This document shows, in pieces, positions 856-43,425 of a stretch of 64,000 bases of DNA. Within the stretch, counting starts at the first letter, position 1. Each line of letters begins with the position of its first letter. The DNA is from a virus. Its lineage: Duplodnaviria > Caudoviricetes. The stretch lies in the IMG/VR virus record IMGVR_UViG_3300036790_000048, positions 64,001 to 128,000 of that record; one strand, 5' to 3'. The notes beneath the pieces are model-generated. The model was given only the letters and a program-made list of their open reading frames with translations, was not told the DNA's origin and ran no database searches. The position numbers and the translations under genes were made by a program.

Positions 856-914
856 CCCCGCGGCCTTGCACTAGGTATAACGGTTGACGGCCGTCAGGTA
901 TTCCAGCTGGCTAG
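856..914 (-). promoter_or_regulatory. Repeat element copy 1: SigR/SigH-like promoter with spacer palindrome
   Basis: Minus strand TAG-CCAGCT-GGAAT-acctgacggccgtcaacc(18)-GTT-atacctagtgcaagg. Confidence 0.8.
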
Positions 915-1387
915 CGGCCGTCCCCGTAGTACGTGGTGCCGTTGAAGTCGATCTCCTCGTAACCCTCCATGAGGTCAGCCGAGTACCCCGCCAGGTTGAA
1001 GTAGACCGACTCCACCGCCTCGCGCCCGTAGATGTCAACAGCCTTCTCCTCGGCGTACTTGTCCCAGTACGTCTCGCAGACGAAGCTGACCGGCGGCTCC
1101 CACACGTGCACCGCGTCGCGTGCGTCCTGCCGGAACTGCAGCAGCCACTGCAGTTCGTCGGCCTCATCGTCATCGATCACGTCGGCACTCTGGATGGCGT
1201 CAATCCGCTTGTCCACCGATTCCGCGTAGACGATCGAGTCGCCGTTCTCGTATCCCATGTCCACTGCCGCCCTGCCCCTTCCGCATAGCTCTGCGTACTC
1301 GTCCGACACGCTGCCCGTCGTCCACCCAGCCGCGATAATGTCCCACAAGAACCTCTTGCGGCGCTCGCGGTCGGCCTCGGTCCTCAT
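911..1387 (-). CDS. Acidic protein resembling ArdA-like antirestriction proteins
   Basis: D/E-rich. C-terminus ETYWDKYAEE...YSADLMEGYEEIDFNGTTYY resembles ArdA-like phage proteins. ATGA overlap at 1384-1387. Confidence 0.45.
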   Translation of the reverse strand: MRTEADRERRKRFLWDIIAAGWTTGSVSDEYAELCGRGRAAVDMGYENGDSIVYAESVDKRIDAIQSADVIDDDEADELQWLLQFRQDARDAVHVWEPPVSFVCETYWDKYAEEKAVDIYGREAVESVYFNLAGYSADLMEGYEEIDFNGTTYYGDGR

Positions 1388-1815
1388 GCCCGCCCGCACG
1401 GCAGTTCCGGGTGGGCGATCGACAGCCGGGTCACGTCCAGCAAGGTCGCGAACATGCCGACCCGCTGCCGCTCGTAGCCCACGCAGGCGTAAATGACACC
1501 GCCGTCGCGCTCGAAGTGGGCGATGTGCCCAGTCACGACCGTCCGGCCGTCGTTGGACACGCCGGTCACCTTGTCGCCCCGGGCGAACTCAAGATCGCCC
1601 ACGGCCACCGGCCCGTCAACCCGGTTGCTCCTGCTGCTCTCGCGCTGCGCGCCCACAGGCTCGTCCCACACCCGCGCCTTGCAATTCTCGCACCACAACT
1701 GCAGCCGCGGCGTACCGTACACCCGGCCAGCCGGGACGGCGTACTCCGTGCCCGGCCGCAGCGAGTGCCCGACGTGCTTGACCAGGACCCCGGTCAGCGT
1801 CACCCTGTTGGTCAT
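1384..1815 (-). CDS. Hypothetical protein (CxxC, SH3-like C-terminus)
   Basis: ATGA coupling at both ends. Contains WCENC and FARGDKVTG. Confidence 0.6.
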   Translation of the reverse strand: MTNRVTLTGVLVKHVGHSLRPGTEYAVPAGRVYGTPRLQLWCENCKARVWDEPVGAQRESSRSNRVDGPVAVGDLEFARGDKVTGVSNDGRTVVTGHIAHFERDGGVIYACVGYERQRVGMFATLLDVTRLSIAHPELPCGRA

Positions 1816-2294
1816 TCCGGCTCCTCCCCCGAGATGCTGACGTACGCGCCCGCGTGGACCACCTCGGCATGCGTGCGCCCGTCCTGCCACCCCTCAGCCA
1901 GATCCACCGACACAGCCGGGATGATGCCGTACTCGGTCAGCGACCCCAGCGTCTGCTCACACTCGGCCGGTGCGCCGTGCTCGTCTAGCTCGATGAGGTA
2001 CGCGTCCGCGAACAGCCGCCACTCGGCCTCGGTCAGCTCCGCCACCCACTTTGCGTGCGCGGTGACGGTGCCCTCGGGCACCTCGTACTCGAACTGGTCG
2101 TTGCCCTCGGTGCGCTTGAACTTGGCCCCGACCGCCTGCCGCGGCTCCCTGCCCTCGCGCCCGTACGGACCCTCGCCGTCGCCGTAGCCAGCGGGCAGAT
2201 GGTGCTCCGGGCTCATCTGCTCGATCAGCTGCTCCGAGTGCTCGCCCTCGACGTCCGCATCGTAGATGACGTAGACACTCTCGATGATGCTCAA
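1812..2294 (-). CDS. Acidic hypothetical protein
   Basis: TTG start overlaps the upstream TGA. Very E/D-rich with good codon bias. Confidence 0.65.
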   Translation of the reverse strand: MSIIESVYVIYDADVEGEHSEQLIEQMSPEHHLPAGYGDGEGPYGREGREPRQAVGAKFKRTEGNDQFEYEVPEGTVTAHAKWVAELTEAEWRLFADAYLIELDEHGAPAECEQTLGSLTEYGIIPAVSVDLAEGWQDGRTHAEVVHAGAYVSISGEEPE

Positions 2295-2521
2295 GACGTT
2301 CCCCCCATGCCGTGGCCAGCCGGATCGTGCTCGCCAGCGCCCTCAGGCTCCGGCCACGTGACCAGGCCGGCCTCGACCAGCGCCGTCGCAGTGCGCCCGT
2401 AGCTGCCCTGCAGCTGCCACGCCACGCCGCTGTCCACCAGGTGCTGGAATAGCTCGATGATGCCCGCGTCATCCAGTTCGCCGCTCTCGAACGCCATGAT
2501 GGCGTCGATGAAGTCGGTCAT
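2291..2521 (-). CDS. Small conserved phage protein
   Basis: MTDFIDAIMAFESGELDDAGIIELFQHLVDSGVAWQLQGSYGRTA, a pattern I recognise from phage accessory regions. TGATG coupling. Confidence 0.7.
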   Translation of the reverse strand: MTDFIDAIMAFESGELDDAGIIELFQHLVDSGVAWQLQGSYGRTATALVEAGLVTWPEPEGAGEHDPAGHGMGGTS

Positions 2522-2748
2522 CAGAGCACCTCCCTGGCGAAGATCATGCCCGACGCCAGGCGCGGGATGACGTAGCTGTCCATCGTCCACCCGGCGTAGT
2601 CCTTCCCGCTGATGACCACCTCGGTGTCCGAGACGCCGCTGACCTGGTAGCCGCTGGGCATGTACCGTTCCACCGTCTCCGCGGACGGGTAGCCCGCGTC
2701 GCTCCGCTGGATGACCGCGGTCCGCACCGGCCTGTCGTCGCGCTCCAT
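2521..2748 (-). CDS. Small conserved actinophage protein
   Basis: GKDYAGWTMDSYVIPRLASG motif. First gene after element 2. Confidence 0.7.
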   Translation of the reverse strand: MERDDRPVRTAVIQRSDAGYPSAETVERYMPSGYQVSGVSDTEVVISGKDYAGWTMDSYVIPRLASGMIFAREVL

Positions 2749-2774
2749 GTTCCCCCACCTCTCTGTTGCGCCCT

Positions 2775-2819
2775 ACGCTATCTATAACTCCTGACGACTG
2801 TCAAGCATTCCCCAGGCTA
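2775..2819 (-). promoter_or_regulatory. Repeat element copy 2
   Basis: Minus strand TAG-cctgg-GGAAT-gcttgacagtcgtcagga(18)-GTT-atagatagcgt. Confidence 0.7.
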
Positions 2820-3002
2820 CCGCTTCCGCCGGAACGCCACCGTCAGGAACACCGTCGCCACCACGATCGTGGCCCCCCACATGATGGGCACCCCCATCGC
2901 CCACAGTCCCCACACCACCGGTGCCAGCACCATGCACAGCACCCACGACATGATCCACAGGGCGACGTAGTAGCCGCACCCCATCCTCCGCCTGCGCGTC
3001 AT
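2817..3002 (-). CDS. Small 2-TM membrane protein
   Basis: Two hydrophobic stretches with basic ends. The stop abuts element 2. Confidence 0.6.
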   Translation of the reverse strand: MTRRRRMGCGYYVALWIMSWVLCMVLAPVVWGLWAMGVPIMWGATIVVATVFLTVAFRRKR

Positions 3003-3208
3003 AACAACTCCCTCAGGTCCACTAGCGCGATGTGACCGGCGCGAATGTCGCGAGCCAGGTTCTCGGCCGCCCTGGCGTCCTGCCGCAGACCCTTGCGCGT
3101 CTCGGCCATGTCCGGCCCCGCGTACGTGCGCCGCCGCGACTCGCGCGTCTTCAGGTCCGCGTAGTTCATCAGCGCGACGAACACGCGCCGTGTGTCCTTC
3201 TCCGACAT
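2999..3208 (-). CDS. Hypothetical protein
   Basis: MSEKDTRR start, coupled to both neighbours. Confidence 0.55.
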   Translation of the reverse strand: MSEKDTRRVFVALMNYADLKTRESRRRTYAGPDMAETRKGLRQDARAAENLARDIRAGHIALVDLRELL

Positions 3209-3645
3209 CAGAACGGCCTCCCGTCGTCGCTCAGCGTGCCCGCGGTGCTCCACCGCGCGCTGAAGGCATCATCCCACTCCGGTTCGTTCTCGGCCGAGTG
3301 GGGGTCGTAGTCGTCGTAGGACGGCTGCGGGTAGCACGAGTCGGTCCCCAGGAACCCGCCGCACCCGCAGCACCGGTCGCTGCACCCGTCCTCGGGGGTG
3401 CAGTCGCCGTGCGCGCTGCTGGACAGGATCGCCTTGGGGAAGTCACCGCTGTCGAACGACTTCTCGTCCATCCGGTCGAGTCCGGGGATGGCCGCGGCGA
3501 TCATGTCGAGCGCGTCCTCGGCGTCCATGTCCCGTGCCGCCGGGCTCGCCTTGCCCCGTGCGATCATCGAGTCGATCAGGCACGCCGGGCAGTAAATGTC
3601 GGCGCAGAAGCTGTATCCCGCAACGTACGGGCTGTGACTGAACAT
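3208..3645 (-). CDS. Cys-rich acidic hypothetical protein
   Basis: YCPAC and CSDRCCGCG, with an FDSGDFPK motif between them. Confidence 0.65.
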   Translation of the reverse strand: MFSHSPYVAGYSFCADIYCPACLIDSMIARGKASPAARDMDAEDALDMIAAAIPGLDRMDEKSFDSGDFPKAILSSSAHGDCTPEDGCSDRCCGCGGFLGTDSCYPQPSYDDYDPHSAENEPEWDDAFSARWSTAGTLSDDGRPF

Positions 3646-3836
3646 CTTTGGCCCCCTAACTTGGCGATGACGATGCGGCGGGTGGTCGAGGTGAACCCGA
3701 ACGGCACCAGCTGGCGCAGCGCCTCTTCATCCGCCGCCTGCTGCAGGCTGGCGAGGAAGCCCTCGAACCGGCCCGGCAGTCGCGCGAACGCGGCCTGGAG
3801 ATTGACATCCTGGGCGGTGGCGGTGAAGCCGATCAT
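3576..3836 (-). CDS. Hypothetical protein
   Basis: First ORF after element 3, with a GGGGGA SD. Confidence 0.5.
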   Translation of the reverse strand: MIGFTATAQDVNLQAAFARLPGRFEGFLASLQQAADEEALRQLVPFGFTSTTRRIVIAKLGGQRCSVTARTLRDTASAPTFTARRA

Positions 3837-3874
3837 CTCTGTTTCCCCCGTCTGCTGGGGTCCCCGCGACCCCC

Positions 3875-3919
3875 TTGCACTATGTATAACCCTTGACGAC
3901 CGTCAGGTATTCCAGCTGG
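3875..3919 (-). promoter_or_regulatory. Repeat element copy 3
   Basis: Minus strand CCAGCT-GGAAT-acctgacggtcgtcaagg(18)-GTT-atacatagtgcaagg. Confidence 0.8.
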
Positions 3920-4214
3920 GTAGATGACAGTCGCACTCTTTGACCTCGCAGGGGATCAGGAGCACGTGGTTGGCCCGCCCGGCCCCGCACCGGCAGTCGA
4001 ACGGCACCTCCGACCGCGCGTCGCAGTTGGGGCAGTGGTACCCGCCGCAGAACGACCCCTGGTGGCTCTCCCGGCAGTGCCCCTTCCCGCACGTCGCGCA
4101 CGGCCCGGTCGGCGGCACCGCGTGCCGGACCCCGTTGACCGTCGTGAACGTCGTCCACCCGTCCCTCATCCGCTGCGCGTCCCCTTCCACGTCGGACATG
4201 TCGAGATCCCGCAT
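3903..4214 (-). CDS. Cys/His-rich zinc-binding protein
   Basis: Several CxxC and CxC pairs, strong GGGGAGG SD. The stop lies inside element 3. Confidence 0.65.
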   Translation of the reverse strand: MRDLDMSDVEGDAQRMRDGWTTFTTVNGVRHAVPPTGPCATCGKGHCRESHQGSFCGGYHCPNCDARSEVPFDCRCGAGRANHVLLIPCEVKECDCHLPSWNT

Positions 4215-4253
4215 GACTACCTCCCCGGGGAGGGCTGTACGCCCTCCCCTCAG

Positions 4254-4329
4254 TGGCGAACGCCGGTGTCGAACCGGATGGCGCGTACCCTAGCGCCGGC
4301 CATTGACCAGGAGACCGCTCCCGATCGCC
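4254..4329 (-). ncRNA. tRNA-like RNA (8/4 fold, non-canonical anticodon arm)
   Basis: T-arm CCGG-TTCGACA-CCGG, acceptor GGCGATCG/CGTTCGCC followed by A, D-like hairpin GGAG-CGGT-CTCC, and a variable-arm hairpin. Lies in the intergenic gap after element 4. Confidence 0.5.
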
Positions 4330-4424
4330 GCCATCTTCCGGCGGGCGTCCCACTTTGCGCTGGTTATGACTTATGTGGCGCTGTGGTTGCGATTCCGCCG
4401 GTTTCTCCGCTGTTCTGTTGCCCC

Positions 4425-4469
4425 CTGCGTCTAGTGTAACGCCTGACGACCGTCAGGTATTCCAGCTGG
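4425..4469 (-). promoter_or_regulatory. Repeat element copy 4
   Basis: Minus strand CCAGCT-GGAAT-acctgacggtcgtcaggc(18)-GTT-acactagacg. Confidence 0.8.
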
Positions 4470-4665
4470 CGTGCGACTGCGTGAACCCGTGCGCCTGGGC
4501 GTGATGGCCGCAGAACGTCAGGTCGCCGGCCGTCACCGTCACGCGGAACGCCGCCGGTGCCTGGCACGCGTCGCACACCTCCGGGTTGTCCGGCGGTAGC
4601 TCGGTGACGAGCGCGCCCTTGCGCACAGGCACCTCAGCGACCTCTTCCGTCAGGTAAGCAGTCAT
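4453..4665 (-). CDS. Small zinc-binding protein
   Basis: CDACQAPA...LTFCGHH, an actinobacterial small-protein pattern. The stop lies inside element 4. Confidence 0.65.
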   Translation of the reverse strand: MTAYLTEEVAEVPVRKGALVTELPPDNPEVCDACQAPAAFRVTVTAGDLTFCGHHAQAHGFTQSHASWNT

Positions 4666-4829
4666 ACCGTTCCCCCTTGGCATAGAACCTCATTCAGTAG
4701 GTCCGCGGCGGTGTCCGCCTCGGACTCGGTGAAGAACGCGAGATCGCCCCGGTACTCCTTCCGCTCGGAGTCCCAGACGCCGTACTTGCGTCCGTCCGCG
4801 GTCATCAGCGCCGTGAACCTGGCGGTCAT
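4662..4829 (-). CDS. 55-aa hypothetical protein
   Basis: MTARFTALMTADGRKYGVWDSERKEY..., with ATGA overlaps at both ends. Below the ORF-track length cutoff. Confidence 0.55.
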   Translation of the reverse strand: MTARFTALMTADGRKYGVWDSERKEYRGDLAFFTESEADTAADLLNEVLCQGGTV

Positions 4830-4954
4830 AGCGCCGCCGCAGCGAGCTGCCCCAGCTCGGCCGGGAGACCCGAGGTGTCGCCCTCGATGGCGTAGAGAAC
4901 GCGGTCAACGACGTTGCAGACGCTCTCGTGAACCCGGTGCAGGACGCTCAGCAT
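4826..4954 (-). CDS. 42-aa hypothetical protein
   Basis: GGGGGAG SD after element 5. ATGA overlap downstream. Confidence 0.5.
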   Translation of the reverse strand: MLSVLHRVHESVCNVVDRVLYAIEGDTSGLPAELGQLAAAAL

Positions 4955-4984
4955 GTCTCCCCCGATCCGGCCGCCCCCGCGGCC

Positions 4985-5032
4985 TTGCACTACGTATAAC
5001 CCTTGACGACCGTCAGGTATTCCAGCTGGCTA
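4985..5032 (-). promoter_or_regulatory. Repeat element copy 5
   Basis: Minus strand TAG-CCAGCT-GGAAT-acctgacggtcgtcaagg(18)-GTT-atacgtagtgcaagg. Confidence 0.8.
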
Positions 5033-6604
5033 GCTGCCCTGGAACTGGATGCCCGACAGCGCGCCGACCTGGTTGCCCGCCTGCGACACGATGCGCCCGA
5101 TCTGCTGCCGCCCCAGCGCGTTGCCGACCTCATCGACGCTGCTGAACACCACCGTGCCGCTGTAGCTCACGCCCAGGCCAGTCTTGTAGACCGTGCCGGT
5201 GAAGTCCATGACCGCCAGCTGGACCGCGTACAGCACGAACACCAGCGCCCGCGAGTGGCCGTACCCGTCCCGTGACTGCATGCGGAACGCCATGGGCACC
5301 GCCTTGCGGTTGTGCTGGTACTGCGTCCACAGTGGCATCGCGTAGTAGTCCAGCGGGCTCGCGCCGAAGCTGGAGATCGACAGCCCAGTCATGGACGCCA
5401 GCGTCGTGAACGGCAGGAACCCCTCGGTCACCTGCAGCGCCGCCTTGTTCAGGTTGACCCACATGCCGTAGTGATAGTCATCTGACATCAGGTCCGTGAC
5501 CGTCATGTCCGGCGTGATGGTGATCTGCTGCGCGGCATATAGCTGCCCGCTCTCGACTCCGGTCGCGCCGTTCAGCATGGCCGCCCGGTCGAGGCTGAAC
5601 CCTTCCATCAGCGGGCCGAAGTTGCCCAGCGACGGGTATTCAGCCAGGGGCGGGTACAAGCTGAACTCGCTGCCGGTGCCGAACTCGAACTGCGTCGGCA
5701 GGCGCACCAGCGGCGGCGGCACCGACCCCTCAACGCCAGCGCCCGCGTCCGTGCTGCCGAGGTCGTGGTACACCTGCGTAATTACGCCAGTGGCGTCCGT
5801 GCCGTGCCCGGTGTCGGTCGAGAACATGAACAAGGCCGCGCCCGTCCCAGTCGCGCCCCTGATCAGCTCCAGGCCCGTCCCAGCGTCCGATGACGGCACC
5901 CGCGCTTTAACCGTCACGCCGCTCGTATCTCCGCCGGTACCGGTGTCAGCACTGCTGATGGGAACGTCGGCGTTCTGGATCTCCATGGCCGACAGTGCCC
6001 AGTTGGCCGCGCCGCTGACCGTCCACCCCAGGTTCTCAGCCGAGGCAGTGCCCGTCAGCGACCGCCCGGCCAGGTGACAGGTGGGGATCTCGGAGATGTT
6101 GTACGTATGGCTGGGGAACGTGGTGCTCAGCGGCGTCACCGTCGCCTGCTGGGCGTCCATCAGAGCCGCGATGTAGACCGTGGACAGCTTGGACCCCGGC
6201 GTGATCGGCTCCTGCGGGACGCGCGAGTAGCCGTTGTTGTTCACCTTCTGCCCGGACTGTGTGCTCGTGCAGCCGTTCAGCACCCGCGGCGTCAGGTGGA
6301 TGACGCACTCCTGCCCCGATGAGTCCGTCGCGGTCATGGTGATACTGCCAGGGGCCGACGTCAGGTACGTGTAGTAGATGGCCGACAGCAGCCGCCCGTT
6401 GGCACGCGACGGGCCGAGCGTCCAGGTGTGGCTGCCGCTATCAGACACAGACAATGACGGTGCGCCCGCGCTCTGCGTGTACGCCGTGACCAGCGCCAGC
6501 ATCAGCGACTTGCCAGGCGGGCTGAACTTCAGCGTCACGCATGACGGGCTGACGCCGACGCCGTGCACCTCGCCCGGCTGTGATATGTCCTCAGTGATCG
6601 GCAC
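5030..6604 (-). CDS. Minor tail protein with a C-terminal tail-tube-like domain
   Basis: The last ~190 aa align by eye with 35579..36208. The N-terminal part is beta-rich, with S-x-D-x-G-x-G repeats. Confidence 0.8.
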   Translation of the reverse strand: MPITEDISQPGEVHGVGVSPSCVTLKFSPPGKSLMLALVTAYTQSAGAPSLSVSDSGSHTWTLGPSRANGRLLSAIYYTYLTSAPGSITMTATDSSGQECVIHLTPRVLNGCTSTQSGQKVNNNGYSRVPQEPITPGSKLSTVYIAALMDAQQATVTPLSTTFPSHTYNISEIPTCHLAGRSLTGTASAENLGWTVSGAANWALSAMEIQNADVPISSADTGTGGDTSGVTVKARVPSSDAGTGLELIRGATGTGAALFMFSTDTGHGTDATGVITQVYHDLGSTDAGAGVEGSVPPPLVRLPTQFEFGTGSEFSLYPPLAEYPSLGNFGPLMEGFSLDRAAMLNGATGVESGQLYAAQQITITPDMTVTDLMSDDYHYGMWVNLNKAALQVTEGFLPFTTLASMTGLSISSFGASPLDYYAMPLWTQYQHNRKAVPMAFRMQSRDGYGHSRALVFVLYAVQLAVMDFTGTVYKTGLGVSYSGTVVFSSVDEVGNALGRQQIGRIVSQAGNQVGALSGIQFQGS

Positions 6605-6636
6605 AGCGCGGCCTCCCTGGGCTCAGCCGCGTGCCC

Positions 6637-7443
6637 CTAGCTGATGGTGAACGTGGTGGAGAAGACCCAGCTGGACCCGGACGCCTTGGTGCCGAGCGCG
6701 ACGCCGGTCTTGTGGTTGACCATCGCGTTGCTAGACGCGGTGGCGAACGGCGATCCCGACGTAGCGGTGAGGTTGTCGCCCGCGGTGACCAGGCCGCGGC
6801 CGGTCGCCCAGCACCACTCGTTCCACGCGAAGTTGGCGTTGGCCGACGCGTAGGTGGACGTGCCCACCAGGACGCCGTTGGTGGTCGTGGTGGCCAGCAC
6901 GGTGGAGTCGAAGATCTGGTAGTACGCGCCGACCGCCGTGCCGTTGCCCAGCAACGCCGTGTCCGAGGTGGCCGGTGTCGAGGTGCCGGTGCCGACACCG
7001 CACACCGGCGTCGCCGTGGTGACACCGAGCGGGTTGATTGCCGTGCCAGTGAGACCCATCCACAGTGACACCAGGTTCGTGAGGCCCTGCGCCACGAAGA
7101 TGTTGCCCGCGTTGGTGACCTCGCCGTCCTCCGGGCCGCGCGGGAAGTACCGGTCGAACTCGGCCCCGGTCAGCTTCAGCACCGGCTTGCGGCTGCCCTT
7201 CAGCAGCGACCGCACGTCCCGGCCGCGCCGGTTCGACACATCAGCCTCGAACCTCCGCATGGCGTACGCGGTCTGGTCGGGCGAGTACTTGGCGACGTGG
7301 GCGATCGAGAAGCCGGTAGCCCCCTGCACGTCAGCCCCGATGTCCATCCGGCCGCGCCTCACGCCAGCCTTGTACGCCTGCTGGATCTGAGCGATGTCAT
7401 CCTTGGTCAGTGGCATGGTCTCTCCCGCGGTCTCCGAAGTCAC
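6637..7443 (-). CDS. Putative tail/baseplate structural protein
   Basis: T/G/A-rich. GVGTGTSTPATSDTAL, ANANFAWNEW and LGTKASGSSW are typical of phage tail-associated proteins. The start may instead be ATG 7416. Confidence 0.65.
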   Translation of the reverse strand: MTSETAGETMPLTKDDIAQIQQAYKAGVRRGRMDIGADVQGATGFSIAHVAKYSPDQTAYAMRRFEADVSNRRGRDVRSLLKGSRKPVLKLTGAEFDRYFPRGPEDGEVTNAGNIFVAQGLTNLVSLWMGLTGTAINPLGVTTATPVCGVGTGTSTPATSDTALLGNGTAVGAYYQIFDSTVLATTTTNGVLVGTSTYASANANFAWNEWCWATGRGLVTAGDNLTATSGSPFATASSNAMVNHKTGVALGTKASGSSWVFSTTFTIS

Positions 7444-7493
7444 CCGTCCCTATCGGAAGTACGGCAGCACTTCCTTAAGCTAGCCTGTAGCCC

Positions 7494-7712
7494 ATGAGCA
7501 TGAACACCTACACCACCGAAGCCGCCCGCGCCCACCTCGGAACGATCATCAGCGACGCCGCCGCAGAGTCGCCCTCGCTGATCACCTACCACGGCATGCC
7601 CGCGGCCGTCGTCGTCAGCTGGGAGTGGTACCAGTACGTCCGGCCGACCCTGCTCAAGGCCGTCATCCAGTCGTCGGACGGAGCCAAGGGCAGGGACTCG
7701 CACACCGGCTAG
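7494..7712 (+). CDS. Phd/YefM-family antitoxin-like protein (orphan)
   Basis: TYTTEAARAHLGTIISDAA...LITYHGMPAAVVVSWEWY matches the Phd/YefM pattern. A TAGCCT -10 sits 7 nt before the ATG. Confidence 0.75.
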   Translation: MSMNTYTTEAARAHLGTIISDAAAESPSLITYHGMPAAVVVSWEWYQYVRPTLLKAVIQSSDGAKGRDSHTG

Positions 7713-8731
7713 TTGGTGTCGAACGTGGCCTTAGCGAACACGTCCTTGCCGAGGTGCTCGCCGCCCTCGCCCGACGCGCTCAGGTGCACCGTGTAGCCCT
7801 TGACGTTCCGCTCCAGGCCGCCGCCCTCCCACGTCACCGCGTCCCCGGCGATCGAGCTGCGCGGGTACTTGGACGTGCCGGTGCCAGCCAGGTTCGCCGC
7901 CGTGGTCGGCCCCGGCTTGTAGATCCACACGACGTAGTGATCCGGGATGGGGTGGCCGCCGAGGTTGCGCACCCAGTTCAGCCGGACGCTCGTCTCCCCG
8001 CCGGTCGCGGTCAGGTGCTGCGGAGCCGGGTAGCTCCAGGCAGCCGGGGCCGGTGGCTTGGGCGGCGTCGGCGGAGCAGGCGGCTTGACCGCGGCGAACA
8101 TGTACGCGTAGAACGCGTCACTATCGTACGCGCTGATGCTGTCGTACTGGGTGGCGTCCGCCTGCGGGTAGCCGCACGTGGCCGGGGAGCAGATGTGCTC
8201 GCCAATCCAGTGCGCGCTCCAGATGTAGTACGTGTCCCGCGCGAACCCGGCCCCGCTCAGCGCGTTGATGACCGCCTGCGTGTCCCCGGCCGAGCAGTAG
8301 TACGTCGGCCTGGTGATCTCGCCGGTGAAGTGGATGCGCTGGAAGGACGGAGCCGCCGATGGGCTCGCGTTACCGGGCTCGATGTCCAGCACCGCGCTCC
8401 CGCTGGTCACGGCCGGGGTGATCGACACCAGCCGCGCGCCGCTCTTGAGGAACCGCGCCACCAGCTCCTGCCAGTTGGCGAACCCGCCGAAGTTGTACCC
8501 CGCGTAGACAGCCAGCCCGGCCGTCAGCTCGGACACCTGCGTGGAGTCCTGCCCGAACAGCACCGCCGCCGACGTGCTCAGGTCCGTCGTAACGACCGAG
8601 TACGCAGCCGGCGCGAGCAGCCCGCCGCGCTTCAGCCGCCAGCTCCTGCTGAGCAGCGCCGGGTTGGGAGCCGCGAACGGCCTCCCAGAGTAGTCAAGCT
8701 CCGGGTGGACCGGAGGGCTAATCGTCGTCAT
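7709..8731 (-). CDS. Putative endolysin (GH25-like catalytic domain, Pro linker, FN3-like domain)
   Basis: VLDIEPGNA, RPTYYCS, IWSAHW and ADATQY, then a PPAPPTPPKPPAP linker, then PAPQHLTATGGETSVRLNW. Confidence 0.65.
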   Translation of the reverse strand: MTTISPPVHPELDYSGRPFAAPNPALLSRSWRLKRGGLLAPAAYSVVTTDLSTSAAVLFGQDSTQVSELTAGLAVYAGYNFGGFANWQELVARFLKSGARLVSITPAVTSGSAVLDIEPGNASPSAAPSFQRIHFTGEITRPTYYCSAGDTQAVINALSGAGFARDTYYIWSAHWIGEHICSPATCGYPQADATQYDSISAYDSDAFYAYMFAAVKPPAPPTPPKPPAPAAWSYPAPQHLTATGGETSVRLNWVRNLGGHPIPDHYVVWIYKPGPTTAANLAGTGTSKYPRSSIAGDAVTWEGGGLERNVKGYTVHLSASGEGGEHLGKDVFAKATFDTN

Positions 8732-8847
8732 GGCCGTACCTATCGGCAACCCCGTCCGGGCTGTCCGCGTCCCGCGCCGCCGGTGACCATCTGCCGCCTG
8801 ACCACGCCCACCGGCACCAGCAGTAGCCAGGGTGGCGCGGGTCGTGC

Positions 8848-11711: not shown

Positions 11712-13030
11712 CTAGAAGCCGTCTTCAGGCACCAGGTCGGCCAGCGGCATCCCGAAGTAGTTGCACAGCATCGTGTCGAGGGCGTTGGCGTACTCGGTGG
11801 TCTCGGCGCACTCGTCACTCGCGTACGCACTACGAGCGGCCACGTACAGCCGCCTCAGCTCGGCCTTGGTCACCGCGCCACGCGGACGCTCTGGTGGCCC
11901 ATGGCCGTCACCGTGACGATGCGCAGGCAGTCCGGGCACCACACCCGCTCGCCCAGCACCGGGTGCCCGCTCGCGCCGAACACGCGCACGTGGCTGCAGT
12001 CGAACCGCACCGGGTACCTTGTCCTCTTTGCCGTCATCTAAGCCTCGTGTCCACTCTGTTCCCGGCGAAGTCGCCCGTCTCCGCCAGCGTCATCATGACC
12101 TGGTTCTCCAGCCAGTGAATCAAGTCCTCGCCCGACTTCTGGTCCCTGATCTGCGGGTACGTCTGCGGTGCCCATCCTGCCAGAGCGCGGTCAGTCGGCT
12201 CCAGCCACACCAGCGCCATGCACGCGAACGACCCTGGGCTCAGCTTGCGCTCGGTCGCATTCCAGTGCGTCACGGCTCGTCCTCGCCGCTCACGTGGATG
12301 ATGCCGTCATTGGCGAACGGGTCGCACACGTGCTCGCTGTCCAGGTGCTGGGCGCTCGCCACGATGTCCCCCGCGCGAATCCCGCCGATGAACAGCTGCT
12401 TAACCAATATGTGCAGCGGCACCGACCCGTCGCCGCTCTTGACCGCGGTCACCTGCTCGCCGCAGTCCGGGCACTTGAACGTCAGCACCAGCGCGCCCTT
12501 GGCGTTGACGCCCGCGTAGACCTCCCAGTCGGCCGCAGTGCTCACGACGCGGGTCCAGCGTGATCGTCGCACACGCCCTGCACGCACCGGTGGCGCGGGT
12601 CCGTCACGGGCAGGCTGGCCGCCTCCAGCGGCAGCAGAGGCACGACCTCGCCGCGCTCGATCATGCACATCCTGCACGGGCACACCGGGTCGCGCTTGGG
12701 CTGCGCCGCCCACCCGAGGTAATCCCATATCGGGTACAGGCCCCTAGCCCAGACCCTCCGCAGCAGGCTCCTCATCGTCGTCACCCCCGAACACGTCGAA
12801 GTCCGCCGCCGCGTAGCACCAGTCAACCAGCTGCGCGCTGGTCATCCTCGGCGCTCGCAGCCACGCCAGCAGCCTCTTGATCATCGCCAGTCCTCCTGCA
12901 GGTGCACCACGGGAACCCGTCCGCGCCCCACTTGGAATTATCGGGGTGCCGCGCCACCAGGCACCACGTCTCATGCCAAGCGCCCGCGCCCGGGTAAGCC
13001 TCCACCCAGACGCGAGCGCCGCCGTCCGTC
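11712..13030 (-). other. Cluster of small coupled hypothetical ORFs (for example 12034..12273 and a CxxC ORF ending at 12270)
   Basis: Short ORFs with overlapping start/stop codons. Individual starts are uncertain. Confidence 0.45.
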
Positions 13031-14584: not shown

Positions 14585-14822
14585 TTGACGCCTCTCCTGT
14601 TTGGGTACTGCTGATATCGGGATAAGACCCACTCGGGCAGGCGCACCTCGGCCAGCATCGACGCCAGCTCGCGCCTGCTCAGGACCGCGATAGCCTCTTC
14701 GTACGTGCACGTCACCTCGTGGTGCGGCAGGCCGGGGTGCCACTTGGACGCCCTCCCGCGCCACCTGCGCGCCGGGTCGTGGTAGCCCCACCAGATGCGC
14801 AGCCGGGCGGGCAGCCCCCGCC

Positions 14823-23441: not shown

Positions 23442-23489
23442 GCGCGTGCCCTTCCCTAGTCGATATACGCCAGTCTATCGGCGTTTGCG

Positions 23490-27300: not shown

Positions 27301-30300
27301 GCAGCCCAGCGTCGCTGGCAAACCAGTTGGCCTCCAGGTTGGCCAGCGCGTCACCGCGCGGCAGCGGGACGCCAGCCGCGTGCGCAGCCTCGTACATCAG
27401 GCCAGAGCAGTCGTAGTACTTGGGTCCGAACCGCTGCGGGTTCTCAGCCAGGTACGGATGTCCGACCTTGGAGTTGAAGTAGTCGAGCATCTTCTGCTCG
27501 ATCGCTCCGCCGTCCGCCACGTGCATGCCGACGTTGCCCTCAGGCACGCCAGGCATGGGGTTGGCGCTCGGGCACGTCTGCCCCGGCGGGCAGTCAGTGG
27601 CTCCGCCAGACGCGAAGCCAGGGATCTTCTGCGATGCCAGTGTGCCGCGGCTGCCAGACCCGGACAGCGTGTCGTAATGATTCAGCTGGTTGAGGAAGCC
27701 CGGCCCCATCTGCCGCTCGATGGCCATCCGAGCCGGCTGCCGGAGGACGTACTCGCCGCCCATGAGCGCAGCCACGTGGTTGTCATGACTGGGAGCGCCA
27801 GGCACGCTGCCGCTGAACGTAGACCCGCCAGCCGCGAACGGCTTGGGGATAGTGGGGATCTTCAGCCCGCCGGGCAGGTGCTTCAGGATGTCATTGTTGA
27901 TGAAGTTGATTGGCGTATTAATAATGCCGACCGCAGTATCGATGGCCGACTTGAACGCGCCGCTGAACGTGTTCTTGATGCCATTGCCCATGGTGGTCAG
28001 CCACCCAGGCACAGTGGTAACGAAGAAGTGCTCCAGGTTGCTAATGACGTCACGGTTGAAGTCAGTCCATACCGTGCTCCACGTGCTGGCGAACCCGCTG
28101 GTGGTGTCCTTGAACCACCCAGGGATAAGCGTGATGAAGAAGTGCTCGATATTCGCCAGCACAGTCCGGTTGAACGCATTCCACGCGTCAGACCACAGGG
28201 CAGCGAACCCGTTAGCTGCGTCCCCCAGCCACTGGGGCACAAGGGTGATGAAGAAGTGCTCGATATTCGCCAGCACAGTCCGGTTGAACGCATTCCACGC
28301 GTCAGACCACAGGGCAGCGAACCCGTTAGCTGCGTCCCCCAGCCACTGGGGCACAAGGGTGATAAAGAAGTGCTCTACGTTCGCGCTGACAACACGGTTG
28401 AACCCGTTCCACACCGTGGACCACGTGGTGGAGAACCCGTTGCCTATATCGCTCAGCCAGCTGGGCACCAGCGCGATGAAGAAGTGCTCGATATTGCCGC
28501 TGATAACCCGGTTGAATGTAGTCCACACCGTGGACCACGTTGTGGAGAACGCGTTGCTGATCTGCCCCAGCCACTGCGGTATCAGCGTGACGAAGAAGTG
28601 CTCGATATTGCCGCTGACGTCCCGGTTGAACCCAGTCCACGCAGTGGACCACAGGGTGGCGAACTGGTTCCCAACCGTCCTCAGCCATCCAGCGAACGTG
28701 CCCGTGAAGAACTTCTCGACCGGCTGCACGAACCCAGAGTCGAACCATTGCCACAGGGGGTCGAACAGCTTCTTGAACAGCATCTGGCCCGTGGTGTAGA
28801 TGACGTTCCACACCTGGTCCGCGCCAGTCTTCAGCGCGTCCCACGCGGCTCCCCAGTGGCCCTCCAGCGCGTCGATCGCCGCCTTGGCGATGGCGATCAG
28901 CTCATCGAAAATGATCTTGAAAATGCCCAGGATCACAGGCTCTGCGATCTTGAACGCGTTAACGAAGAACGTGCCGATCGGCGTCCAGGCCGTCTTGAAC
29001 CACGTGACGACGTTGGCCGCGCCAGTCTTGATGTCATCCCAGGTGCTGGGCTTGCCCAGGTTGGTCACCTGCACCGCGGTGTCTGACAGCTGCCTGCGAA
29101 CCTGCTCCAGGTTGACCTGGTTCAGGTCATTGCCACCCTGCTGCGCGTCGTGCAGCCCCTGCTTCATGCCAGCCAGTGGCTTGGTGCCGTTGTCTACCTC
29201 CCCCCACAGCTTCTCGGCCGCGCTCTTGGACAGGCCCATAGACTCAGCCCAGCCGATGAACTGGGATGCAGCCGCGCCGCTGTTCTTGTCAATCGCCAGG
29301 AACATGGTGGCGACTGCCTTGCCAGCGTTGATCGTGGCTTCCGAGTTAGGCCCAGTCTTGACCAGCGCCGTGGCGAACGCAGACAGCGCCCTCTGGCCGC
29401 CGTACGCGTTGAACGCAGCCGTGACCATGGCCGGGTTCAGCTGCGACTGCAGCGAGCTGCTCAGGCGCTGGGCCTCTAGGCTCAGGTTGGACGCTGCCTG
29501 CGTCTCCTTGTCCGTGGCGTCCTTGGCAGCGGTCAGCGGGTCCTTAATGTTGCCGACCCACTTCTGCAGTTCCTTGATGTTGGTGGTGGCCGGCCCGCCG
29601 GCCTCCTGTGCCAGCGCCGAGATCTCAGCCGCGGCCGTCTTGCTGCCGCCAGCCATTGGTATCAGAGACGCCACCAGGTCCTTGACAAACTTGGTGAAGT
29701 TGCCCGTGCCAGTCAGCGCCTGCTGGCTGCGGAACGCGTCGAACAGCTGCTCGACGTTGGTCAGGTTGGTCTGGAAGTCCGATTGCAGCTGGAGGCTCGG
29801 CGCGTTCAGGCCGGTCATCGACGCGCCAGCCGTCTTGGCATCCGTGGCAAATGTGGCGAACCCCTGCGCCATGGTGATAAGCGCAGTCTCGCTGCCCGTC
29901 ACCGTCTTGATCCACGTGTCCCAGGCGGTGTTGAGGTTCCCCATCTCCTTGACCTGGGTGGACTCGCTCACCGTGAGGACGTTCAGGTCCCCGCCGACAG
30001 TGCCAAGCTGCTGGCCCATCGCCTGGTAGCCCTTGATCAGGCCAGTAACCTGCTGGAACGCATCCGCCCAGACCTTATTGGACGTGCTGAACAGCTGGTT
30101 GGTCTTGACCCCGGCCGCGTTCAGCAGCGCCAGCGCGCCGACATACCCGACGCCGTACGCCTTGGACACCTGGCCGACGTGATCCAGCTCGGCGCTCAGC
30201 TGACCGGTGAGCTGCTGCTGGAAGCCAGTCAGCTCCTGCGTGTTGCCGCCGAGTCCTGCCTGCGCCCTCCCTAGCTCAGTGGTGGTGGCAGCCAGCGCGC

Positions 30301-35160: not shown

Positions 35161-35228
35161 AATTCGTGCGGCCTCCAAGGGCTCATTCTTAACTAGTTGC
35201 GGGGTTTCGCTTTTCTAGAGTATCGGAC

Positions 35229-36262: not shown

Positions 36263-36865
36263 CTATCGGCTGTACTCCCGGTACATATCCACTTCCACGC
36301 GCAGCCCAGCCATTTCCGCATGCAGGCGCTTGTTCTCCCGCTCCAGCTCCCCGATGCGCTCCAGCAGGTAACGCACGCTGCGCCGGTTGCGCCGGTGCTC
36401 CTCGGTGGTCACCCACCTGATGTTGCCGGGCTCGTACGGCTCATCGTCCTTGACCCGGCCGAGGACGTGCCCGTCCGGCCGCGGCCCGATCAGGGCCTCC
36501 ACGTCGGTCACGAACGCCTTGGCCGACTCGTACCAGGGGTCGTAGAGGTGCAGCCCGTAGTCCGAGCTGCGCCGGTCCCTGCTACGCCGCCTCAGGCCGA
36601 TCCAGACGGGGTACAGGGGGTGCTTGCGCATGCCGTGAACAGTGGCCGCCACCCGGTGCCCGGCCTCGCGCCTCAGGCACCCGCACGACTTGGTGGACCC
36701 CCGCGTCAGCAGCTCCAGCTGGATCGTCGCCTCAGTGCCGCAGTCGCACCGGCACAGCAGCGTGCGCCTCGACTGCCCGGACCTGACGATGTTGGCCGCC
36801 TCCCGCACCACCACCAGCCGGCCGAACCTCTTGCCAGGCGGAATGTAAGTGCGCGTTCCGGTCAT
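36263..36865 (-). CDS. HNH-type homing-endonuclease-like protein, possibly inactive
   Basis: GKRFGRLVV, CRCDCG, TKSCGC, HGM.KHPLY and YEPGNIRWVT...RNRR, plus a C-terminal coiled coil. Confidence 0.75.
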   Translation of the reverse strand: MTGTRTYIPPGKRFGRLVVVREAANIVRSGQSRRTLLCRCDCGTEATIQLELLTRGSTKSCGCLRREAGHRVAATVHGMRKHPLYPVWIGLRRRSRDRRSSDYGLHLYDPWYESAKAFVTDVEALIGPRPDGHVLGRVKDDEPYEPGNIRWVTTEEHRRNRRSVRYLLERIGELERENKRLHAEMAGLRVEVDMYREYSR

Positions 36866-37377: not shown

Positions 37378-37381
37378 GTCA

Positions 37382-37660: not shown

Positions 37661-37674
37661 GGTGCCAGCTCCCC

Positions 37675-38592: not shown

Positions 38593-38594
38593 GC

Positions 38595-38777: not shown

Positions 38778-38794
38778 ACCTCTTTAAATCGGTG

Positions 38795-40055: not shown

Positions 40056-40089
40056 TCTGAGCCTCCTAGCCGGGCCGCCCCCGCGGCCC

Positions 40090-40128
40090 TTGCACTAGGT
40101 ATAACCGTTGACGGTCGTCAGTTATTCC
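40090..40128 (-). promoter_or_regulatory. Repeat element copy 6
   Basis: Minus strand GGAAT-aactgacgaccgtcaacg(18)-GTT-atacctagtgcaagg. Confidence 0.8.
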
Positions 40129-40369: not shown

Positions 40370-40773
40370 GCCGCTGCCTCTTCACTGACGATCTGCCCGT
40401 CGTCCACCTCGGTGGTGACCTCGCCCTCCACCATCACCTTGTCGAACAGCAGCTGCATGGTCCGCCAGTCCCCGGCGAACCGCACCCGCCGCCCGTCCTC
40501 CGTGACGCCAGTGGTCGTGTAGGTCGTCGCGAACGCCTCTTGCCGCTCCAGGTCGTCGCGCCGCACCGTGATAGCCGCCATGATCCCCACCTTTCGCTCT
40601 AGCTCCAGTACAGTCGCCACCCTAGCCGGTGCCTTGACGATCGTCAACTCTTTACGGCACTCGCTGTCCACCCACTGGTTCACCCCGTCCGCCTTGTCCC
40701 TGCACTTCTGGCAGGCCTGGCAGCGGCAGCGCAGGATGCCGCAGCACCCGATGAACCCGTGCCCTGGCATCAT
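40366..40773 (-). CDS. Cys-rich hypothetical protein
   Basis: CCGILRCRCQACQKC. ATGA overlap. Confidence 0.5.
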   Translation of the reverse strand: MMPGHGFIGCCGILRCRCQACQKCRDKADGVNQWVDSECRKELTIVKAPARVATVLELERKVGIMAAITVRRDDLERQEAFATTYTTTGVTEDGRRVRFAGDWRTMQLLFDKVMVEGEVTTEVDDGQIVSEEAAA

Positions 40774-41378: not shown

Positions 41379-41397
41379 ACCCTCTATATCGAGGGCA

Positions 41398-41742: not shown

Positions 41743-41759
41743 TTCCCCACCCCCAATTG

Positions 41760-41786
41760 AAAAGGGAGGGCCTCTCGGCCCTCCCT
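41760..41786 (-). terminator. Intrinsic terminator
   Basis: AGGGAGGGCC-gaga-GGCCCTCCCT followed by TTT. Confidence 0.8.
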
Positions 41787-41799
41787 GGTTGCTACTCGG

Positions 41800-43098
41800 T
41801 CAGGCTGCCTTAACCAGCAGCAGCTTCTCGTGGACCCGAGTCTTGAGCTTGTCGTCAGTGCCCTCCAGCAGCGCCGTGACTCGCGCCGCCGCCAGCTTGT
41901 CGCCCTTGACCCGCTTGGGTGCCGAGTGGTCGAGGTAGTCGGTGAAGACCCGCTCGGCCGAGTAGGCGGTCTTGCCGGTCTGCGCGGCCTGGTTGCCCCA
42001 CATGTCCACCAGCGTGCCGTGCCGCTCGTCCCAGTTCTTCCGCTTCCGGTCGGACTCCTCAGCGCCGGGCTTGGCGTAGATGTCCGCCGCCAGGGCCTCG
42101 AAAGCCTTCAGCTCCATGTCGATCCGGGCCAGCTGCTCCTGCTCGGACTTGAACTCCCCGAAGTACTTGACGCTCAGGCCGAGGGTCCGGCGCGCTTCCT
42201 TCAGATTGTCGTCCGACATGGCGTTGGTGGTGTGCCGGACCGACCACTTGGCCACCGCGTCGCGGAAGTTGAAGCGCTCGGTGTTGCCGCACGCGACCCT
42301 CCACGGGCTGACGGTGACGCTGTTGCTGGTCGTGCCGTCGTGGCTGCCCAGGAAGTACAGTTTGGGCTCGATGATGTCCTCCACGCCGTCGCCCAGATCA
42401 AGGACGACGTCATCCGGGAGCCGCATGCCGATGAAGACGTGGCTGCCGCCGTAGGTCGCGCCCGCGGACAGGAACCGAATGTCGTACTTGACCACCAGGT
42501 CCTGCAGGAACGCGCCTAGCTGGCGGTTCTGGATGGCCTGGTAAACCCGGCCGACCGCCTGGCCGTTCTTGGTCAGCGCCGCGCCGGTGTCGCTGCGCGA
42601 GGTGATGAACGTGCCGGGCACCTCTTCCACCCTGCCGGTGACCGGGTTGGTGTAGAGCGCCGGGGTCTGGATTGCCTCCCAGGCGATCCCGCCGAGCCGC
42701 AGCACCTCATCCAGGTCGGTGACGCCCTCGGGGACGACGTTGCCCAGGCCGTGCCACTCGTTGACCATGGTGTAGAGCGCGGCCTTGCCGGTGGACTCGT
42801 CCAGGTTCGACACCGGCATCGCCAGCGGCTGCTCCTGCTCAAGCCCGCGCGGCCGCTGCATGCGCAGGACCTCGCCGTTGTCCCACGAGTCCGGGTCGGT
42901 CACCGTGAAAGTGCCGTCGCCGTTGTCGCGGACCTTGCCGTCGTCAACGCGCTGCTGGAACGCCGCCCGGTACTGGTCGGCCGCCTCGCGCGCCCGCTCG
43001 GCCCTGGCCGGGATGCCGTCGTTGTAGTTGCGGATGGCCTGGAGCTGCTCTGCGCGCTCCGCGGCGAAGGCCTCGTTGCGATCCATGACTGCTGCCAT
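41800..43098 (-). CDS. DUF932-family (phage/plasmid-like) protein
   Basis: WHGLG, GSHDGTT, RVACGNT and SVRHT motifs. Confidence 0.8.
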   Translation of the reverse strand: MAAVMDRNEAFAAERAEQLQAIRNYNDGIPARAERAREAADQYRAAFQQRVDDGKVRDNGDGTFTVTDPDSWDNGEVLRMQRPRGLEQEQPLAMPVSNLDESTGKAALYTMVNEWHGLGNVVPEGVTDLDEVLRLGGIAWEAIQTPALYTNPVTGRVEEVPGTFITSRSDTGAALTKNGQAVGRVYQAIQNRQLGAFLQDLVVKYDIRFLSAGATYGGSHVFIGMRLPDDVVLDLGDGVEDIIEPKLYFLGSHDGTTSNSVTVSPWRVACGNTERFNFRDAVAKWSVRHTTNAMSDDNLKEARRTLGLSVKYFGEFKSEQEQLARIDMELKAFEALAADIYAKPGAEESDRKRKNWDERHGTLVDMWGNQAAQTGKTAYSAERVFTDYLDHSAPKRVKGDKLAAARVTALLEGTDDKLKTRVHEKLLLVKAA

Positions 43099-43140
43099 CT
43101 GTGATCCCCACCTCTCGTCCCCCGGTCCCTCCGGAGGGCC

Positions 43141-43210
43141 TTGCACTTACTATAACCATTGACGGTCGTGAAATCATCCCCAGCTGGGAAGTTTTTTCTT
43201 CAGCTGGCTA
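43141..43210 (-). promoter_or_regulatory. Repeat element copy 7 (degenerate, with CCAGCTG duplicated)
   Basis: Minus strand TAG-CCAGCTG-aagaaaaaacttc-CCAGCTGG-GGATG-atttcacgaccgtcaatg(18)-GTT-atagtaagtgcaagg. Confidence 0.7.
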
Positions 43211-43360
43211 CGACCTCGACCAGATGGTCCTGCCGTCCGCCGTCACCAGCAGCGACCGCCGGTTGAACAGTTTCGCCACGACCTCGCCCGCGTCGTCATA
43301 GATCGTGTCGTAGTCCATGCCCATGTTCCGGGCGATGTCCATGATCTCGGCGTCTGTCAT
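43208..43360 (-). CDS. 50-aa protein forming a single-gene unit between elements 8 and 7
   Basis: GAGGGGG SD. Reads MTDAEIMDIARNMGMDYDTIYDDAGEVV. Confidence 0.6.
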   Translation of the reverse strand: MTDAEIMDIARNMGMDYDTIYDDAGEVVAKLFNRRSLLVTADGRTIWSRS

Positions 43361-43379
43361 CTGCGCCCCCTCAGCGTCT

Positions 43380-43425
43380 CACTGAGTGCAACGCTTGACA
43401 GTCGTCACTTATTCCCAGCTGGCTA
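43380..43425 (-). promoter_or_regulatory. Repeat element copy 8
   Basis: Minus strand TAG-CCAGCTG-GGAAT-aagtgacgactgtcaagc(18)-GTT-gcac. Confidence 0.75.

Follow-up and report, generated by a model that had tools for sequence, protein, structure and literature searches.

GGAAT-N18-GTT elements before accessory genes of an uncultured 140-kb phage and the sigma factors that may read them

Phage promoters are normally assigned to the housekeeping sigma factor of the host, to a phage sigma factor or to a phage RNA polymerase. An uncultured 140-kb phage (Duplodnaviria, Caudoviricetes; IMG/VR record IMGVR_UViG_3300036790_000048), whose sequence is present in soil metagenome DNA runs (three listed, and none of RNA), raises the question which sigma factor reads its accessory genes. 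Bases 64001-128000 of the record form the window, i.e. the whole stretch of 64,000 nucleotides analysed here, in which the element GGAAT-N18-GTT recurs before small genes. A sequence-only reading of the window had counted eight copies, had recognized in them the promoter consensus of the extracytoplasmic function (ECF) sigma factors SigR and SigH, and had proposed that the genes behind them are transcribed by the stress sigma factor of the host or by an ECF sigma factor of the phage. In this study, we describe the element as an oriented, intergenic and conserved repeat, which very probably represents a promoter class for accessory cassettes. A host ECF sigma factor of the SigH/SigR type is the best single fit for its reader, and we propose it tentatively. 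The only sigma-like protein that we detected in the phage is related to FliA and WhiG, and it most likely reads a second class of sites, CCGATA, before late genes.

The GGAAT element and its conservation

The pattern GGAAT-N18-GTT has seven exact matches in the window, all seven on the minus strand, which is the gene strand. Among 100 dinucleotide-preserving shuffles of the window the mean was 0.30 matches and the maximum two, and none reached seven. An eighth copy (copy 7, 43154-43179) reads GGATG-N18-GTT or, alternatively, GGGAT-N19-GTT. The eight copies of the sequence-only reading, with seven exact ones on the minus strand and GGATG in copy 7, are confirmed by these counts and shuffles; its coordinates (866, 2775 and so on) are the low-coordinate ends of an element of about 50 bp. 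The whole-genome motif scan which it had called for was done with a weight matrix over the 139,587-bp genome and recovered the eight window copies and one weak copy (genome 35241), with nothing else above 15 bits and the 99.99th percentile at -12.7 bits. With up to two mismatches allowed, the pattern occurs in the whole genome at nine sites on the gene strand, at none on the opposite strand and at none in the reversed control. Two GGAAT-type copies lie outside the window (genome 35226 and 36193), both of them weaker. Over the 16 specified positions the mismatches fall eight times in the dyad, twice in GGAAT (both in the copy at genome 36193) and never in GTT.

The entire element measures about 55 bp and can be written (TAG)CCAGCTGG-AAT-ACC-TGACGGTCGTCA-AGG-GTT-ATACnn-AGTGCAAGG. 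Between GGAAT and GTT it carries a TGAC-N4-GTCA palindrome, and a conserved AGTGCA follows; the palindrome and a TTGAC-like hexamer, both conserved within the 18-nt spacer, were not mentioned in the sequence-only reading. Directly next to GGAAT there is, in most copies of the present phage (designated G000) and in one copy of the related contig G001, another small palindrome, CCAGCTGG; in the window it is seen at about 864-912, 3873-3921, 4423-4471, 4983-5031 and 43380-43424. The TAG inside GCTAGCCAGCTGG is often the stop codon of the upstream gene, and the copies lie in intergenic gaps, frequently straight after a stop codon. A purine-rich ribosome-binding site (RBS) and an ATG follow in nine of ten copies, the ATG 47-82 nt past the first G of the pentamer at the GGAAT position. 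In the ECF register the predicted transcription start (+1) is the tenth base past GTT, a G in 15 of 17 copies, and a few bases past it a GC hairpin of varying sequence is found in 9 of 17 copies (z -1.9 to -2.9).

All copies in the window, with their hairpins and downstream open reading frames (ORFs), are on the minus strand. Copy 1 (core GGAATACCTGACGGCCGTCAACCGTT, 879..904) has its predicted +1 at the G at 869, a hairpin at 845..865, that is 4-24 nt past this start (-15.8 kcal/mol, z -2.3), and a downstream ORF of 121 aa (467..832). Copy 2 (core GGAATGCTTGACAGTCGTCAGGAGTT, 2786..2811), which can also be read TTGACA-N18-TAGCGT, is followed by a 75-aa ORF (2521..2748). Copies 3 and 5 have the same core, GGAATACCTGACGGTCGTCAAGGGTT, and together with copy 1 are nearly identical across 50 bp. 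Copy 3 (3888..3913) has the hairpin GGGGTC/GACCCC (3857..3873; -14.0 kcal/mol, z -2.0) and an 86-aa ORF (3576..3836); copy 5 (4998..5023) stands directly past the stop of a 524-aa gene (5030-6604) and has the hairpin GGCCGC/GCGGCC (4969..4984; -15.8 kcal/mol, z -2.0) and a 42-aa ORF (4826..4954). Copy 4 (core GGAATACCTGACGGTCGTCAGGCGTT, 4438..4463) has no start codon near it, the first long ORF starting at 110 nt. Copy 6 (core GGAATAACTGACGACCGTCAACGGTT, 40103..40128) is followed by the hairpin GGGCCGC/GCGGCCC (40072..40089; -19.9 kcal/mol, z -2.2). The divergent copy 7 (GGATGATTTCACGACCGTCAATGGTT) lies upstream of the gene for a DUF932 protein of 432 aa (41800..43098; PF06067, 1e-42), and copy 8 (core GGAATAAGTGACGACTGTCAAGCGTT, 43390..43415) directly past the glycosyltransferase gene and before a 50-aa ORF (43208..43360). 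The claim that all copies point into small non-structural genes holds for most of them, the ORFs having 38-121 aa and no family match, those behind copies 1, 2, 3 and 5 included, but not for copy 7 with its DUF932 gene. Just downstream of the accessory cassettes, at window 1-193 and further leftward (genome 63600-64193, minus strand), is the gene of an Ltp-type surface lipoprotein of the superinfection-exclusion family. About 40 nt before its start there is a distinct AT-rich motif, CTTTCTAATAGCGTGCGAGTGCAAGG, which has the word AGTGCAAGG in common with the GGAAT elements.

Two viral contigs carry the element: G001 (29 kb) has four copies and G002 (28 kb) three. G001 is collinear with genome 98-116 kb and has copies where copies 8 and 7 stand in G000, behind the glycosyltransferase gene and ahead of that for the DUF932 protein. 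For G002 the collinear part is genome 15-44 kb, and where G000 has its two weak copies G002 has good ones. The proteins flanking matching positions are about 37-84% identical; as the copies sit at the same places, the elements were kept while the flanking proteins drifted. The pattern scan of viral contigs returned 22 stretches, three of which, in two contigs, belong to the element family; the other 19 were set aside as chance matches, 13 of them in DNA of low GC content (GC <0.50). A metagenome scan with a longer pattern returned seven stretches, one of them family-like (L077, a metagenome contig of 1.9 kb with one copy). The nearest cultured relative, Microbacterium phage Magritte (OR553905.1), has the same gene order and a capsid protein of 55% identity; no GGAAT-type copy was found in it, and a megablast search of window 1-6000 against phages gave no match. 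In the first 100 kb of Magritte the word GATTCGGAG has 14 copies, which at 84-99 kb (L085) lie mostly past terminator-like hairpins and before small genes; this word could be an early promoter or leader motif that belongs to Magritte itself.

The phage sigma factor and the CCGATA sites

The proposal that the phage itself encodes the ECF sigma factor did not hold. Six-frame searches with Sigma70_ECF (PF07638) and with the anti-sigma family zf-HC2 (PF13490) gave no match at E up to 10, those with Sigma70_r2 and Sigma70_r4_2 gave a single ORF, and Pfam searches of 152 ORF translations gave no further sigma factor. This ORF (genome 41586-42299, minus strand; L014:3586-4299:-) encodes 237 aa and lies outside the window, flanked by a helicase gene and a DnaB-like gene. 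In 11 viral contigs a homologue occupies this place; the one in Magritte is gene 47, for which 'DNA binding protein' is the only annotation. A search with the single sequence found FliA (3.7e-7) and chain 6pfv_A ('RNA polymerase sigma factor'; 5e-7), which we take to be WhiG, and a profile of 23 homologues found FliA in the PDB at 2.5e-22 over residues 12-225, i.e. over the full length. All 23 homologues match NCBIfam TIGR02479 (FliA_WhiG), the best at 4.6e-27; the phage ORF itself matches at E 2.3e-15 with 57 bits against a cut-off of 189.6. Judged by these matches, the phage protein is a distant relative of the FliA/WhiG family and, by the curated cut-off, not a member. A related-locus search with the single sigma protein yielded a 16-residue match only, and the homologues came from the alignment query. 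A phage RNA polymerase was rejected as reader after the two large unassigned ORFs had been considered for it: the 1311-aa ORF at genome 58212-62147 has no match in PDB, Pfam or PHROGs, and that of 952 aa encodes a radical SAM protein.

The second class of sites is defined by CCGATA, the most intergenic-enriched of 3,959 gene-strand hexamers. In the whole genome 19 of its 29 gene-strand occurrences are intergenic, intergenic DNA making up 20% of the sequence (p=1.6e-7), and 14 occurrences are on the other strand. The total in the window is not above chance (21 vs 13.8 expected; 7 of 100 shuffles reach 21), and the signal resides in strand and position and not in the total count. The hexamer is common to the upstream regions of matching late genes in G000, G001, G004 and G007. 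At nine of the 19 intergenic sites a start codon follows after 7-9 nt, without an RBS, and opens an ORF of 45 aa or more, an arrangement which, as far as sequence can indicate, is that of leaderless mRNAs.

Of these 19 sites, 14 lie in the window, each of them on the minus strand. Leaderless arrangements are seen at 61210..61215, 8 nt before the GTG of the portal gene, at 8741..8746, 9 nt before the ATG of a 340-aa ORF, and at 7451..7456, 7 nt before the GTG of a 268-aa ORF; the sites at 54547..54552 and 48889..48894 lie 8 nt before the ATG of a 170-aa ORF and 9 nt before a GTG, respectively. Others are placed upstream of genes: 51731..51736 precedes the major capsid gene by about 100 nt, 44794..44799 lies upstream of the glycosyltransferase gene, 36264..36269 upstream of a 209-aa phrog_36442 gene (with a site at the same place in G001 and G007), 35221..35226 upstream of the tail assembly chaperone gene and 23476..23481 upstream of a 337-aa gene next to a Dit-like gene. 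The sites at 54012..54017, 53474..53479, 14615..14620 and 12939..12944 are intergenic. Outside the window, about 6 kb at genome 51.8-58.2 kb (L014, L015) are almost devoid of ORF calls with high GC content at third codon positions (GC3), and several CCGATA sites are nevertheless found there; the 1311-aa ORF lies beside this stretch.

CCGATA was present alongside the sigma gene in all four sigma-bearing relatives examined (G004, G007, G002 and Magritte). Several CCGATA-N9-ATG sites are found in G004, and in the structural region of Magritte CCGATATCCCTGAC-ATG is seen twice, CCGATATCCCTGA occurring there a third time with no such ATG. Flagellar and WhiG promoters have a -35 element TAAA and a -10 element GCCGATAA (PMC8325347, available in part), and CCGATA is the core of this -10 element. 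A TAAA-like -35 element, as would be expected of sigma-28 promoters, is not visible at the expected distance across the 19 aligned sites. Because of the placement of the CCGATA sites and their sigma-28 -10 core, the FliA/WhiG-like sigma factor of the phage most likely reads CCGATA promoters before late genes and would not be the reader of the GGAAT element. This agrees with the absence of a family copy, at up to two mismatches, from the sigma-bearing contigs G003-G012 and with the way in which CCGATA accompanies the sigma gene.

Phage-encoded sigma factors take part in temporal programmes of other phages, such as gp28 and gp33/34 of SPO1, gp55 of T4 and gp36 of phiEco32. As in such programmes, the sigma gene described here lies among replication genes, and a separate late promoter class stands before structural genes. 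It differs in that the sigma factor is FliA/WhiG-like, the putative promoters keep the CCGATA core with no visible -35 element, and nearly half of the intergenic sites are placed for leaderless mRNAs.

Candidate readers of the GGAAT element

SigH promoters are described as GGAAt-N18-19-GTT, with a -35 element gGGAAta and a T at -31, and validated examples include GGAATA-N17-GTT (PMC10012870, available in part). The invariant parts of the phage element fit this description, as the sequence-only reading had seen. For comparison we tabulated 24 family members, 16 with GGAAT and GTT at N18 (from four contigs) and eight others; the 16 together with copy 7 and the copy at genome 36193 make up 18 GGAAT-type copies. 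GTT is present in all eight window copies and in 18 of 18 GGAAT-type copies (20 of 20 if copy 7 and genome 36193 are counted twice). GGAAT at N18 is present in 16 of the 18 and is exact in seven of the eight window copies. The ECF reading of the SigH/SigR type is the only one that is satisfied by all 16 copies with GGAAT and GTT.

Our proposed explanation is that the ten elements, eight in the window and two outside, are promoters of accessory cassettes placed between or after late structural operons, and that their reader is most likely a host ECF sigma factor of the SigH/SigR/SigE type. GGAAT would serve as the -35 element, with the T at -31, and GTT, at -12 to -10, as the -10 element; the conserved G would be the first base transcribed, and about half the copies would give an mRNA with a GC hairpin at its 5' end. 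The TGAC-N4-GTCA palindrome would be inherited from an older housekeeping-type promoter, in which it overlapped a TTGACA -35 hexamer, and probably acts as an operator at which a dimeric regulator switches these promoters off. Candidates for this regulator are helix-turn-helix proteins of the phage, encoded at genome 33026-33436, 37388-37657 and 18569-19150. Of the earlier interpretation, the promoter-like character before accessory cassettes and the fit to the consensus are retained, without the phage-encoded ECF sigma factor; a link of the element to redox or translation stress is speculation.

With the SigH promoters of Corynebacterium and Mycobacterium and the SigR promoters of Streptomyces the phage elements share GGAAT as -35 element, GTT as -10 element, the 18-nt spacing, a frequent A past GGAAT and a purine at the predicted start (PMC10012870, the part available). 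They differ from them in that they stand in a phage and not in a cellular thiol-stress regulon, that their sigma dependence is presumed, that their spacer is conserved, palindromic and overlaps a TTGAC hexamer, and that the bases past GTT are ATA and not gaa.

Several points weigh against a host ECF sigma factor. Promoter activity and start site of the element are deduced from its letters, and the host hints diverge between Microbacterium (through Magritte) and a metagenome-assembled genome (MAG) of the Chloroflexia, so that a SigH/SigR-type sigma factor in the host is an assumption. Conservation of the spacer, with the TTGAC-like hexamer inside, by far exceeds that in cellular ECF promoters, and in G004, whose sigma factor is equally close, the palindrome of the spacer forms part of plain TTGACA-N16-18-TAnnnT promoters. 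An extended -10 element is another way to read GTTA (G-14, T-13, T-12 and A-11). Moreover, the conservation counts of GGAAT and GTT are biased because the search patterns demanded most of both, and an ECF sigma factor held by an anti-sigma factor would be an odd choice for about ten phage promoters.

These points lead to the housekeeping sigma factor (SigA/sigma-70 type) as the first rival. It could read the element in one of two registers, GGAAT and GTT then being contacts for a phage activator or repressor or for the alpha subunit. In the first register a -35 hexamer (C/T)TGAC(G/A) is followed 17-18 nt later by a -10 hexamer TAGTGC or TAAGTG; in the second, an extended -10 promoter, G-T-TAYASN, begins directly at GTT. 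The predicted start would be about 19-21 nt past GTT in the first register and an A 12 nt past GTT in the second, the latter almost coinciding with that of the ECF register. By descent the element family is indeed of the housekeeping type, as far as the comparison of related sequences goes, because G004, G000 and G007 carry the same dyad with a TTGACA-type -35 hexamer and TAnnnT. The genome of G000 has 15 TGAC-N4-GTCA dyads, 12 of them intergenic, and three housekeeping-type sites of the family: TTGACGATCGTCAA...N17...TAGGGT in the window (40619..40647, minus strand; TTGACG-N17-TAGGGT, genome 104647), which has the same palindrome and neither GGAAT nor GTT, GTGACA-N17-TAGTAT at genome 132011 and TTGACG-N18-TAACGT at genome 36186. 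In G004 there are four TTGACA(nnnGTCA)-N16-18-TAnnnT promoters with the same dyad and without GGAAT or GTT. In G007, a relative with a 45%-identical sigma factor, GGTTGACACGTGTCTACC occurs 15 times, with TAnnnT and then a conserved leader agcccac(c/a)aaacggaggc behind it; these copies lie at 46-65 kb, 9 kb and 135 kb (L069-L076), in both orientations and in a region rich in small genes, and look like a textbook early promoter and operator set. By the look of the sequence alone, a word resembling a tRNA T-arm has nine copies in G007.

The dyad over the -35 region looks like an operator, and the arrangement recalls lambdoid phages, whose early promoters with overlapping operators are read by the housekeeping sigma factor and controlled by a phage repressor. 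Shared with them are the repeated oriented promoters, the dyad over -35 and the plain TTGACA-N17-TAnnnT sisters in G000, G004 and G007; the GGAAT-type copies differ in that most of them are without the -10 T and all have two extra invariant blocks. The hexamers of these copies fit the housekeeping sigma factor in part. TA does begin the -10-like hexamer in 14 of the 16 copies with GGAAT and GTT, and TAnnnT is present in one of the two registers in nine of them. But TAnnnT stands 16-18 nt past the TTGAC-like hexamer in only three of the 16 as compared to seven of the eight others (Fisher p=0.0023), the last -10 T thus missing in 13 of 16; in the second register, counted from the last T of GTT, it is found in 7 of 16 and the T is missing in 9 of 16. 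Seven of the 16 fail both, copies 1, 3, 5, 6 and 8 included, and copy 8 and the G002a copy have a G after GTT where the essential A-11 would stand. As to the -35-like hexamer, TTGAC is exact in 10 of the 18 GGAAT-type copies and 9 of the 16, and six of the eight window copies have CTGACG or GTGACG, with C or G in place of the first T; a strict sigma-70 scan of window 1-8000, in which five copies lie, gave no site. The lower variation of GGAAT and GTT as compared to the hexamers is also left unexplained. We regard the housekeeping sigma factor, perhaps with a phage factor on GGAAT and GTT, as a rather unlikely but real rival reader of the GGAAT-type copies.

An unrecognized phage factor acting on GGAAT...GTT, either a very divergent sigma factor or an activator like MotA/AsiA of T4, would make the elements middle promoters. 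About 45 bp are conserved, which goes beyond cellular promoters and is typical of phage-specific recognition, the element is confined to one lineage (G000, G001/G002 and L077), and the majority of the phage ORFs have no family match. However, Pfam, PHROGs and the six-frame family searches give the one sigma-like ORF and no candidate for such a factor, and the agreement with a cellular consensus, exact down to the spacing, would have arisen by chance; we consider this improbable.

Even less probable is that the elements are no promoters at all but protein-binding sites, such as an operator or a partition-like repeat, or remnants of duplicated cassettes. The palindrome and the weak symmetry of AAT...GTT would suit the former, and the near identity of copies 1, 3 and 5 could reflect a recent duplication, but the elements are strictly oriented, keep a fixed distance to RBS and ATG and hold conserved intergenic places amid diverging DNA, and their own flanks (CCAGCTGG upstream, ATAC..AGTGCA downstream) are asymmetric and oriented with the genes, all of which speaks for promoters. 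A 24-bp operator with AAT...GTT as outer half-sites was likewise dropped as the main reading because its N3 blocks and flanks are not symmetric.

That the phage's own FliA/WhiG-like sigma factor reads the GGAAT element is hardly credible even though G002 has a 65%-identical sigma factor and three copies, as the element shares nothing with the sigma-28 consensus (neither TAAA nor GCCGATAA), as G004, with a 68%-identical sigma factor and a 101-kb contig that covers the matching positions, has no copy and only negative weight-matrix scores, as the ten further sigma-bearing contigs (G003-G012, G004 included) have no family copy at up to two mismatches, the sole two-mismatch match, in G008, being without GTT, and as it is the CCGATA sites that go with the sigma gene.

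Genomic setting and significance

The record has direct terminal repeats and is estimated to be complete. GC content is 62-70% along the window and about 67% overall. A GC3-based ORF call gave 170 genes on the minus strand and 90 calls on the plus strand; the latter appear to be shadow frames of minus-strand genes, and the whole genome is therefore apparently read leftward. By PHROGs and Pfam, the window contains portal, head and major capsid genes, tail genes including that of a 2962-aa tape measure protein (24368-33256, minus strand; with an endolysin-like stretch at residues 1921-2046), and a non-structural block with glycosyltransferase, DUF932 protein, HNH endonuclease and a holin-like protein. 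From about 5000 down to 1 a series of small ORFs without assignment follows, and the replication genes are to the left of the window. Two neighbouring proteins may be virion-associated kinases: a 583-aa PHROGs minor head protein (54913-56664, minus strand) with a Zeta-toxin-like kinase domain (PF06414, 8e-30) and the adjacent 423-aa protein (56649-57920, minus strand) with a weak PI3/PI4-kinase match. The 952-aa radical SAM protein (genome 6480-9338, minus strand; L012) is encoded amid replication and glycosylation genes and is 78% identical in G004 over 565 of its 952 residues and 51% identical in G007 over 982.

Concerning the host, a 702-kb contig of the Chloroflexia MAG (L084, 643-650 kb) has a syntenic block with helicase, a 46%-identical sigma factor and two downstream genes, which raises the possibility that part of the phage group infects Chloroflexota. 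With the query used no capsid match was found in this MAG, nor was a GGAAT-type site, and a prophage remnant or a chimeric assembly could account for the block.

Taken together, this large, virulent-looking phage may have rewired about ten accessory promoters from housekeeping-type to host ECF recognition while it kept the old operator palindrome, within a transcription programme of three tiers; we regard this as a possible account, held with somewhat more reserve than the host ECF assignment itself. If it is true, the cassettes would fire only once the infection or the environment releases the host stress sigma factor, the alternative sigma factor of the host serving as a sensor, and late genes would depend on the phage's own FliA-like sigma factor via largely leaderless CCGATA promoters. 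Phage promoters read by a host ECF sigma factor were not found described in a literature search of sources available in part, which is not proof of absence. If the accessory promoters do respond to a host stress ECF sigma factor, the physiological state of the host would be the cue by which the phage times these genes. The pairing of a FliA-like phage sigma factor with leaderless CCGATA promoters is conserved in the cultured phage Magritte and can be tested there directly. Whichever sigma factor acts on the GGAAT element, promoters have turned over within one family, in which the same operator core is combined with two sets of recognition elements.

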